Source: Nitrosopumilus sp.
GTDB lineage: Archaea; Thermoproteota; Nitrososphaeria; Nitrososphaerales; Nitrosopumilaceae
DNA length: 64,000 nucleotides
Assembly (NCBI GenBank): GCA_965197525.1
Contig: OZ240211.1
Span: 960,001 to 1,024,000, forward strand
Direction: 5' to 3'
A program made the translations under genes and the position numbers. Positions 31,886-34,597 of this stretch are shown here, piece by piece; position 1 is the first letter of the stretch, and each line of letters opens with the position of its first letter. The notes below the pieces were generated by a model, which made no database searches, was not told the origin of the DNA, and was given only the letters and a program-made list of their open reading frames with translations.

Positions 31886-32251
31886 TATAAGTAAAAATAG
31901 CGATTTAAATTATAATAATCTTTTCCTACGAGGTAGGCGGTGTAAATGTAGCGTAGAGCAAGACGTGATCTGTGCTCAAAGTCGCACGCTCAGATCATGG
32001 TTTGAGAAATTACAGTAGACGATTGCTTTATACTGCCAATATGAGCAGACTGCCAAACTAGAGTACATGGATAACTCCAACGAGAACCACAGATACAGCA
32101 ACAATAACAAAAAAACCTACTGCTCCTACAAGGATTGACTATAAAGAAAAAAACATTGTGTATAGACGAATCATAATTTTTGATGGATTTAAGACTGAGT
32201 CGTAAAGAGATTTATTGATTTTACAATAGGATTATAAACATTATTTCTTAT

Positions 32252-33531
32252 GGTTCTGTCGGGTTAACGGGTGCTGAGCAATAAATAATTAACCTTGCAT
32301 TCTATACTACGTGTTGAAGGCACACAAGTCAATAGCACAAAAACATACTCCAAACTCCGACCTAATGGACATGATGGTTACATTCACAAAGATGGTCAAC
32401 CACTGCATCAGGATCGGGTTAAGGGAAGATACCCACAACATGAAGCGGATGTCTATATTATGTTACCACGAACTCAGAAACTACGACATTTTATCTTCGT
32501 ACAAACTCAATGCAATATCAAGAGCTGCCGGCATCCTGGCAAATAGAGATCAATCAGTCAAACGTGGCATCAAAGTTAGGTACCCAGTCGTAAAAAATCC
32601 GTTTATCACAAACTGTTACGGCATAAAACATAATGGTGCTCTGTTGACAATCCCGTACAAGAACAGAAACCCTATCAACATCTTGCTGAACGAACACACT
32701 CAAAAAATACTGTCCGATCCCGCCTTGACGGTATGCTCATTTTCATTGACTGCCTTCAACATCAGTCTTTGTATTTCGAAAGAAGTACGAGAGATAGAGT
32801 GTACCAAGACAGTGGGAATAGACAGAAATCTTAGAAATGTAACCTGTGGAAATTACGAAGAGGTGACATTCTACAAAACCAACAAGTTGTTATCCATCAA
32901 AGAGAACACAATACATGCTAGAACTGGTTTTCGCAGAAATGACCGAAGAAAGAAAGGTCAATTCTACAAAGAAAGGCAACGAAGAATGTCCAACAGAACG
33001 AAACAATACCTGCACAGAATCTCAAAAAGCATAGTGGATAACGCTGTCAAGAAGAAGACTGTCATCGTACTTGAGAATCTGAAAGGAATTAGAAAACTGT
33101 ACAAAAAAGGAAACGGTCAAGGTAACAAATACAGGCGTAGAATGAATGGATGGCAATTCTTTGAACTACAACGCCAAATAGAATACAAAGCCCAATGGGT
33201 CGGGCTCCCAATCAAATTTGTAGACCCAAAACGCACGAGCACGCAATGTCCAAGATGCGGAAAGAAACTCCAAGAGGACATGCAACACAGTCGTAAAATG
33301 TCGTGTAATAATTGCGGATTATACATGGATAGAGATATCATCGCTGCCATGAACATATCACGCAAACTGTCCCCTAGGTTTAGGGATAGTAGAGATGGCA
33401 TACATGAAGCGCAGTCTGGCATTTTTGAGCCAGCAATGATGGAATCCAGTACACCGGTAATCCAGATAGTCGATATGTCAAAGTCGGGTAGTCGGTGCGT
33501 TACTTGAAGCACCCGTTAACCCGACAGAACC
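32252..33531 (+). mobile_element. Non-autonomous tnpB element with 24-bp perfect terminal inverted repeats and an 8-bp target-site duplication
   Basis: Left TIR GGTTCTGTCGGGTTAACGGGTGCT (32252-32275); right TIR AGCACCCGTTAACCCGACAGAACC (33508-33531); TTTCTTAT at 32244-32251 and 33532-33539. Confidence 0.93.
32311..33507 (+). CDS. tnpB: TnpB RNA-guided endonuclease (IS200/IS605 OrfB, Cas12f-like)
   Basis: RuvC-I VGIDRNL, RuvC-II VLENLKGI, TSTQCPRCG...CNNCG zinc finger and RuvC-III DRDIIAAMNI. Confidence 0.95.
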   Translation: MLKAHKSIAQKHTPNSDLMDMMVTFTKMVNHCIRIGLREDTHNMKRMSILCYHELRNYDILSSYKLNAISRAAGILANRDQSVKRGIKVRYPVVKNPFITNCYGIKHNGALLTIPYKNRNPINILLNEHTQKILSDPALTVCSFSLTAFNISLCISKEVREIECTKTVGIDRNLRNVTCGNYEEVTFYKTNKLLSIKENTIHARTGFRRNDRRKKGQFYKERQRRMSNRTKQYLHRISKSIVDNAVKKKTVIVLENLKGIRKLYKKGNGQGNKYRRRMNGWQFFELQRQIEYKAQWVGLPIKFVDPKRTSTQCPRCGKKLQEDMQHSRKMSCNNCGLYMDRDIIAAMNISRKLSPRFRDSRDGIHEAQSGIFEPAMMESSTPVIQIVDMSKSGSRCVT

Positions 33532-33700
33532 TTTCTTATATACATCCAATATGTCTATCAGATATTACGTGGATAACCATTTGAAAATTCGTAACAGATA
33601 TTGTATAATTTGTACATTTTAACCGATATGTTTATCGTGTTGTCAACATACGGTACGATTTACACTTGTGCAGATTTACAAAATTTTAAAGACCTGTTTT

Positions 33701-33730
33701 CTTCTTCTTCTTCTTCTTCTTCTTCTTCTT
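33701..33730. repeat. (CTT)10 intergenic microsatellite
   Basis: Direct read of the sequence. Confidence 0.95.
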
Positions 33731-33835
33731 GATCAATCTTGATATGTAATGGAATAACAAATACTGTAATCACATCCAGCTTCTAATCTCAACAATGTAA
33801 GATTAGCTAATAAAAATAAAAGAATGAAAAATCGA

Positions 33836-34597
33836 CTATTTCTTTGATTTGTTAACAAAGGCAGTCATACGTTCTTCTCTGTCAGGATGAGTAAAGCAGT
33901 TTCTCCAAGCAAGTAGTTCTATTGAAAGACCTGTATCAAGATCAGCGTTTCTTCCTTTGTTGATTGCAACCTTGGACATTTGAACACCCATTAGAGAGTT
34001 TTTAGCTATCGCTTGTGCCATCTTGAGGGTCTCTTCTTGCAATGATTCAAGAGGGACTACATGATTTACAAGACCAATCTCTTTGGCTTCTTGGGCTTTG
34101 ATTAGTTTACCAGTGTAAACGAGCTCTTTTGCCTTTGCAATGCCTACAATTCTCATCAATCTTTGTGTTCCACCCCATCCGGGAGGAATACCTATAGTAA
34201 CTTCTGGCTGGCCTAGTCGTGCGGTCTCAGATGCGATTCTAATATCACAAGACATTGCAAGTTCGCATCCTCCTCCTAGTGCAAAGCCATTAACTGCTGC
34301 AATAGTCGGCTGTTTGACCAATTCTACAGTCGCAGTAACTAGCTGACCAATCTTTGCATACTCTACTGACTCATCAGCAGATATCTTTGACATGTATTCA
34401 ATATCAGCACCTGCTGAAAATGCTTTTTGACCCTCACCAGTTAGGATAATAACTTTGACACTATCATCATGATTTAATGCTTCAAAAGTTTTGATTAGTT
34501 CTTTTGCAACATCAATATTCATGGCATTGAGTTTCTCTGGTCTGTTAATAGTAGCAGTGCATATCCCATCAGAAGTAGATGTTAAAACTAGCGACAT
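33836..34597 (-). CDS. Enoyl-CoA hydratase, likely the 3-hydroxypropionyl-CoA dehydratase/crotonyl-CoA hydratase of the 3HP/4HB cycle
   Basis: [15 protein letters not shown] and [17 protein letters not shown] crotonase motifs; adjacent to an ADP-forming CoA ligase as in thaumarchaeal 3HP/4HB loci. Confidence 0.88.

Follow-up and report, generated by a model that had tools for sequence, protein, structure and literature searches.

A TnpB-carrying IS6-like transposon of Nitrosopumilus whose right inverted repeat may form the terminal stem of an omegaRNA

Here we describe a short transposon with a single gene, tnpB, in a 64,000-nucleotide stretch of archaeal DNA (the window) from Nitrosopumilus sp. 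(assembly GCA_965197525.1, contig OZ240211.1, positions 960,001 to 1,024,000). The element occupies positions 32252-33531 of the window (1280 bp), tnpB is its sole long open reading frame (ORF), and all features below are given on the + strand. An earlier note on this DNA had proposed that the right terminal inverted repeat has been co-opted as the terminal stem of the guide RNA of the TnpB nuclease (omegaRNA). Comparison with about 60 related elements argues for this proposal, through covariation in the stem and through the fit of each stem arm to the repeat of its own element, and points to a guide taken from the DNA just outside the insertion.

The element, its TnpB and its relatives

The transposon is bounded by perfect 24-bp inverted repeats, GGTTCTGTCGGGTTAACGGGTGCT on the left (32252-32275) and its 100% complementary counterpart on the right (33508-33531), and is flanked by an 8-bp target-site duplication, TTTCTTAT, found at 32244-32251 and again at 33532-33539. 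The gene runs from a GTG start to a TGA stop (32311-33507, 398 amino acids), and from the end of its stop codon (33505-33507) 24 nt remain to the end of the element. A carrier of the IS200/IS605 group (IS1341 type, tnpB only) was ruled out, given the perfect 24-bp inverted repeats, the 8-bp duplication and a hairpin present at the right end only. The features that mark IS6/IS26-like elements (a tip of the form GG......G and an 8-bp duplication; PMC6807381) are found here, in the tip GGTTCTG, with GG at bases 1-2 and G at base 7, and in the 8-bp duplications that flank 27 copies in the genome. The element is best read as a non-autonomous IS6-like transposon with tnpB as its only gene.

The ORF encodes a TnpB in which the acidic residues of RuvC-I, RuvC-II and RuvC-III (D/E/D) and the zinc ribbon are present. 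It matches Pfam Cas12f1-like_TNB (6e-21), and phmmer aligns it to TnpB and Cas12f chains of the PDB with GIDRN, VLENL, DRD and two CxxC pairs in place.

The host genome is a single contig of 2.21 Mb with 39.6% G+C (its positions carry the prefix G000:C1 below); it contains archaeal amoA and therefore belongs to an ammonia-oxidising archaeon. About 35 full-length and 15 internally deleted relatives of the element, at 77-85% identity, are spread through it, and 32 full-length tnpB paralogues are intact. All copies start on the left with GGTTCTGT or a variant differing by one or two bases (GGCTCTGT, GGGTCTGT, GATTCTGT), and nearly all end on the right with ACAGAACC. This end comes 47-113 nt after a 19-nt block, TAGTCGATATGTCAAAGTC (33467-33485 in the window), which occurs 51 times in the genome, 47 of them identical. 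Between these fixed points, six subfamilies or more can be told apart by the inner parts of their repeats, and many copies have a clean 8-bp duplication. The copy in the window is the sole member of its own subfamily in the host genome; a solo 27-nt left repeat of that subfamily at G000:C1:291139-291165, with unrelated sequence after it, is the relic of a second copy.

Taken together, the roughly 50 elements that bear the 3' part described below as the scaffold amount to about 2% of the 2.2-Mb genome; TnpB families with >30 copies are described as lacking in Altae-Tran 2023 (PMC10691335). When 150 other genomes of the family were searched at the DNA level, none proved to contain the scaffold, a short coding motif being all that matched; the relatives in other genomes were recovered by protein search.

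Pairing of the last tnpB codons with the right repeat

As the earlier note had recognised, the last codons of tnpB, GTCGGGTAGTCGGTGC, are a degenerate copy of the terminal repeat; they correspond, as a direct copy, to bases 7-23 of the left one (GTCGGGTTAACGGGTGC), and the pairs that the note had listed across the stop codon are all there: GTCGGGT (33483-33489) pairs with ACCCGAC (33519-33525), and GGTGC (33494-33498) with GCACC (33509-33513). The resulting terminal hairpin (33483-33525) has the last codons as its 5' arm, the TGA stop in its loop and bases 7-23 of the right repeat as its 3' arm. The 57-nt tail at 33475-33531 adopts this very fold, with an energy of -20.6 kcal/mol (z -3.68, none of 200 shuffles being as good), against -5.0 kcal/mol (z +0.30) for the mirror-image stretch at the left end. 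A wider stretch of 221 nt does not fold exceptionally (z -1.06), the local hairpins alone standing out, so that the case against chance rests on the local hairpin and on its relatives.

Among these relatives the pairing is general. In the minimum-energy fold of nearly every distinct tail, the bases that follow a conserved AAGU pair with the inner part of the right repeat of the same element, a pattern that holds in the host genome and in relatives down to 43% protein identity; the pairing extends over the first two bases of the shared ACAGAACC, with AGAACC left unpaired. Bases 7-18 of the repeat, set against the first 20 nt after the AAGU anchor, were paired in 42 of 43 distinct tails as opposed to 11 of 43 left ends, with mean energies of -13.9 kcal/mol for right tails and -6.2 kcal/mol for the left-end control. 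Transposase-only IS6-like elements have ends with weak folds (-5.4 vs -11.7 kcal/mol). When one representative of each of 16 repeat classes was folded with matched and mismatched arms, the 5' arms fitted their own repeat better than a foreign one (-10.3 vs -7.2 kcal/mol, permutation p = 5e-6), and the difference persisted after removal of the two invariant closing pairs (p = 8.5e-5).

Stem covariation among homologous copies, which the earlier note had set as a test that could overturn its idea, is present. In an alignment of 22 sequences from the host and 14 other genomes, in which the stem was tested as a named structure, four pairs have changed on both sides. The 7-bp stem is paired in 81% of cells, against 27-45% when the partner strand is slid, and its covariation score is 0.331 against 0.202 +/- 0.031 after shuffling, a value that none of 500 shuffles reached. 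RNAalifold, run on the gapped alignment, did not predict the terminal stem. Among imperfect pairs, G-U occurs 23 times and A-C opposition 8 times, counts in which cells are not independent of each other; the excess of G-U favours pairing in an RNA of the + strand. In the window copy itself, two substitutions relative to the nearest subfamily convert a stem with 5 of 7 pairs into one with 7 of 7. The comparison shows that the last codons of tnpB stay complementary to the right repeat of their own element, which, judged from aligned copies, amounts to co-evolution of codons and repeat.

Two explanations would account for such a hairpin without any role in a guide RNA. The first holds that the complementarity serves the DNA end itself, as a third, subterminal transposase-binding repeat or as a hairpin in single-stranded DNA, and that the guide RNA ends upstream. 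The likeness of the 5' arm to the left repeat, of which it is a degenerate copy, would suit it, as would the A-C oppositions seen in some copies and the equal folding of both strands in the window copy. We consider it very unlikely, since the feature belongs to right ends (42/43 vs 11/43 for left ends), is missing or poorly developed in autonomous IS6-like elements whose ends serve the same type of transposase, favours G-U over A-C by 23 to 8, and keeps its pairing register while its sequence changes. A further point is the one-sided motif beside the duplication, described below, which is expected only if an RNA reads through the end.

The second explanation makes the hairpin an element of the messenger RNA, whether a 3' stabiliser, a terminator or a translational device at the stop codon. 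It draws on the fact that the hairpin spans the stop codon in the window copy and in several subfamilies. The stop codon shifts against the stem, however (32 nt before the element end at one extreme, 37 nt inside at the other), and the 3' arm invariably stops exactly 6 nt short of the element boundary; the reference point is therefore the boundary and not the stop codon. No U-tract follows the stem, and what lies downstream is host DNA, different for each copy. The terminator reading was dropped on these grounds, and a purely messenger-level role as a whole seems to us highly improbable. The reading we prefer remains that of a terminal omegaRNA stem made from the transposon end.

As a side observation, TCGGGTTAAGGG (32414-32425), in the 5' part of tnpB, agrees with bases 8-19 of the left repeat at 11 of 12 positions and is therefore also complementary to the right repeat; the match may be due to chance.

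Predicted scaffold, guide and insertion-site motif

Comparison of the 3' ends points to a structured RNA that overlaps the 3' end of tnpB and reaches the right end of the transposon. Its predicted scaffold, placed at 33312-33531 from the consensus fold, synonymous constraint, the 19-nt block and the deletion derivatives, has an approximate 5' limit that may lie as far upstream as ~33180-33230. The consensus fold of 31 distinct 3' ends from the host genome contains eight compensatory pairs. In one stem, CUGGC/GCCAG at 33416-33433, four pairs covary, with CG to UA and GC to AU exchanges in 3 to 9 sequences per pair. The second hairpin that the earlier note had pointed out, CTGTCCCCTAGGTTTAGGGATAG at 33367-33389, proved real (-10.8 kcal/mol, z -2.43) and belongs to this scaffold. 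Its compensatory changes in the own-genome alignment include UA/CG in 14 sequences and CG/UA in 6; across the 22 sequences such changes affect 6 of its 7 pairs, and the share of paired cells is 91.6%. Its loop contains the invariant AGGUUU and is kept as AGGUU(U/C) in 14 of 15 relatives even though the stems differ.

The coding sequence bears a corresponding mark. Synonymous-codon identity among the 32 intact paralogues is 0.45-0.70 up to codon 290 and 0.76-0.91 after it, with no matching rise in amino-acid identity. Such suppression of synonymous change over the last ~110 codons (~330 nt) is the signature expected of a second constraint acting at the RNA level. Deletion derivatives of 208-497 bp (e.g., G000:C1:1385894-1386101, 143852-144348, 803351-803738 and 870887-871264) have lost tnpB and retain both repeats together with the 3' scaffold; TTA stands alongside them too.

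At the distal end of the scaffold, the repeat tip AGAACC (33526-33531) is single-stranded in nearly all minimum-energy tail folds. Its GAACC (33527-33531) is complementary to GGUUU (33377-33381) in the loop of the second hairpin, and these two strands, paired in 99.1% of cells across the 22 sequences, likely form a guide-proximal pseudoknot. ISDra2 has a pseudoknot between bases -5 to -3, next to its guide, and bases -103 to -105, which is said to be common to all Cas12 guide RNAs (PMC10097598).

The guide predicted from this scaffold end and from the motif described next begins with the right duplication, TTTCTTAT, and continues into the flank ATACATCCAATA (33532-33551, the length being assumed at about 16-20 nt). 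The earlier note had taken the bases in front of the duplication as a target-adjacent motif (TAM), and this idea gains support from the other copies. At positions -3 to -1 of the left duplication the motif W-T-R is found in all 27 own-genome copies with a clean duplication, as TTA (32241-32243) in the window; the T at -2 alone gives p = 9e-15 for these copies, at a genome-wide NTR frequency of 0.146. No mirror motif lies past the right duplication in the same 27 copies. Relatives in other genomes have W-T-R in 12 of 15 cases. Transposase-only IS6-like elements with the same repeat type and clean duplications, taken from other genomes (n = 7, the host genome having only two scaffold-free elements, the autonomous and the 851-bp element described below), show it on 1 of 14 sides. 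Present with TnpB elements and not with transposase-only ones, the motif follows the TnpB/RNA cargo and the way it is oriented rather than the transposase. These findings are indirect evidence for a guide drawn from flanking DNA and a TAM beside the left end of insertions.

It could also be that scaffold and guide are as described and that the one-sided W-T-R stems neither from later homing nor from the selective survival of insertions placed next to a TAM; instead TnpB, through TAM binding, would help the DDE transposase to choose or orient its target. Directed insertion of this kind would explain a motif found at 27 of 27 sites, directly abutting the duplication, confined to one side and lacking from transposase-only elements; such completeness is reached more easily by directed insertion than by survival. 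We nevertheless think it unlikely: TnpB is not known to be physically linked to any IS6-like transposase, none of the loci examined had both genes in one element, and exact adjacency is equally demanded by the guide/TAM geometry under homing.

Under that homing geometry the guide should spare the occupied allele, as the earlier note had reasoned, and the junctions agree with this expectation. The predicted 20-nt guide sequence occurs once in the genome, directly after AGAACC, and no TAM-flanked self-target exists. The right junction is preceded by ACC and not by W-T-R, and the left junction, with its TTA, matches only 8 guide bases. Since double mismatches in guide positions 1-12 abolish cleavage by ISDra2 TnpB (PMC10097598), a match of this length suggests that the occupied allele would be spared. 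Beyond the guide, in the intergenic DNA 170 bp past the element, lies a (TTC)n microsatellite of about 11 units (33698-33731); similar runs, as weak matches, occur elsewhere in the genome.

A probable passenger of an IS6-like transposase and its proposed cycle

The host genome encodes DDE_Tnp_IS240 proteins, and one autonomous IS6-like element of 1970 bp (G000:C1:746475-748444; L036:413-2382) has a 378-amino-acid ORF of this type between perfect 29-bp repeats, with an 8-bp duplication of its own, CTATTGTG. The first 18 bases of its repeat are those of one TnpB subfamily, and the first 8 those of the window copy. Its ORF has a CxC...H zinc-finger-like N-terminus, and about 400 bp of extra DNA lie on each side of the gene, including an 81-amino-acid ORF on the opposite strand. 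The genome has six or seven further ORFs of the DDE_Tnp_IS240 type, without recognisable GGTTCTGT repeats. In other genomes, 29 DDE loci were inspected and had no tnpB next to the transposase, and the longer DDE elements also lack it. Because they share repeat tips and 8-bp duplications with the autonomous element, the TnpB elements are most likely non-autonomous passengers of an IS6-like DDE transposase encoded elsewhere in the genome. A further element, of 851 bp (G000:C1:883991-884841), has 51-nt inverted repeats starting with GGTTCTGT, a duplication TATTACTG and a 96-amino-acid ORF; without a TnpB scaffold, it represents the same transposon type with other cargo.

From these observations we infer the following cycle. 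An IS6-like DDE transposase from elsewhere in the genome would move the element in trans. The last 220-300 nt of the element would encode, on the + strand, the omegaRNA scaffold of TnpB, and because the transposase needs the 24-bp repeat at the very end, this repeat would come to sit between scaffold and guide. Once transcribed and processed, the RNA would pair bases 7-23 of the repeat with the last tnpB codons, in the hairpin at 33483-33525, and so hide the repeat; the tip AGAACC alone would stay free, with GAACC probably pairing with the loop GGUUU in the guide-proximal pseudoknot. The guide would be the DNA just outside the element, that is, the 8-bp duplication and its flank (TTTCTTATATACATCC...). 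In the empty site, reconstructed as ...CATTA TTTCTTAT ATACATCC..., the match to the guide is preceded by TTA, which fits W-T-R and would serve as the TAM. TnpB would then cut the empty allele and not the occupied one, and recombination with the occupied copy would restore the insertion or spread it. We regard this mechanism as a whole, with an omegaRNA that holds the repeat folded and a guide built from duplication and flank, as probable.

Several observations weigh against it. In the host genome alone the covariation of the stem is modest (70.9% paired vs 68.9% after shuffling, with 2 of 500 shuffles reaching the covariation score), and the shuffling is a control that is weak because most copies share similar repeats. 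The subfamily with GTCGAGT/ACCCAAC keeps 5 of the 7 closing pairs. The hairpin of the window copy consists entirely of Watson-Crick pairs, so its two strands fold alike. GGUUU/GAACC shows no compensatory change, both strands being almost invariant, and only one-sided changes were seen (U-G to C-G twice, G-C to G-U once). An Rfam search of 31900-33900 with E up to 1 returned no match. The set of seven transposase-only elements is a small control. Sixteen copies have good inverted repeats and no matching 8-bp duplication (e.g., G000:C1 183546, 297834, 600180 and 616794); 11 of these 16 have T-R, mostly as TTA or TTG, 8 bp before the left end, and reciprocal exchange of duplications between copies was discarded as an explanation when no such pairs were found. 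The empty allele was not found in 70 genomes of the genus, in which only the neighbouring coding region is conserved. Finally, bacterial IS6/IS26 elements copy themselves without excising, so that it is not obvious how TnpB would bring its customary advantage here, the restoration of a copy lost by excision.

This last point touches on what the nuclease does for its carrier. A recent review argues that a DDE transposon should gain little from an OMEGA system, since a double-strand break already remains after its excision, and that an element which never excises should gain nothing (PMC13565253). For the present family, either the archaeal elements do excise, or TnpB drives new insertions into a sister chromosome or an incoming one, or insertion is itself coupled to the reading of the TAM. 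It is possible, though on balance doubtful, that TnpB on a DDE transposon of a type that does not excise in bacteria decides which insertions persist or where they land, acting as a homing drive for newly made DDE insertions or as a targeting factor that reads the TAM, and not in excision repair.

Set against known systems, the element would work like the ISDra2-type TnpB-omegaRNA of IS200/IS605 (Karvelis 2021; Altae-Tran 2021; structure in Nakagawa 2023, PMC10097598). As there, a compact RuvC nuclease with a zinc ribbon goes together with a predicted scaffold that covers the 3' end of tnpB and extends to the right end, a predicted guide from flanking DNA and a candidate T-rich TAM by the left end; a pseudoknot made from the last bases before the guide is probable. 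The carriers differ, as IS200/IS605 elements have asymmetric hairpin ends and make no duplication, whereas the present one has 24-bp inverted repeats and 8-bp duplications and lacks Y1 TnpA. In the element described here, unlike ISDra2, the duplication separates the predicted TAM from the left end and would form guide positions 1-8, and co-evolving codons would fold the right repeat away.

The architecture of the carrier fits the DDE-associated TnpB branches DDE-1 to DDE-6 and solo TnpBs (Altae-Tran 2023, PMC10691335), in which tnpB also lies within inverted terminal repeats. In these the 3' end of tnpB lies <250 bp from the transposon end, and solo tnpB genes have the ends of a transposase-bearing element, as in this family. 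The DDE partners named in the consulted parts of PMC13565253 are ISL2, IS630 and IS1031, and an archaeal IS6-like partner (DDE_Tnp_IS240) is not among them. The present family is further set apart in that tnpB and transposase were never found in one element, and in its repeat hairpin and TAM-duplication-guide geometry, neither of which is described for the DDE-associated branches in the passages of these sources on which we rely.

Fanzor proteins, the eukaryotic and viral homologues of TnpB (Bao and Jurka 2013, PMC3627910; PMC10530073), offer a second parallel, since their guide RNA overlaps an inverted repeat and their TAM can agree with the insertion-site sequence (PMC10530073). The protein described here has an archaeal host and is a typical small TnpB with a DRD motif, unlike Fanzor, and where fixed Fanzor duplications (TA, TTAA) are read as part of the TAM (PMC13565253), the variable 8-bp duplication of this family would be guide. 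With IS6/IS26 (Harmer and Hall 2019, PMC6807381) the family shares a repeat that starts with GG and has G at position 7, the 8-bp duplication, and DDE_Tnp_IS240 in its autonomous partner. It differs in that the element itself lacks a transposase and has tnpB as cargo, and in that the partner transposase is long (378 amino acids) with an N-terminal zinc-finger-like region; PMC6807381 questions whether archaeal 'IS6' elements are members of the family.

The family illustrates how the guide RNA of a TnpB can accommodate a transposon that needs a long inverted repeat at the very place where scaffold meets guide. The presence of W-T-R at every clean insertion in the host genome, and its absence from transposase-only relatives, is evidence from genomes that the insertion pattern of a DDE element is shaped by the nuclease. 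The copies also offer about 16 natural variants of repeat and arm, together with a predicted TAM and scaffold, around a compact archaeal TnpB with a short TAM.

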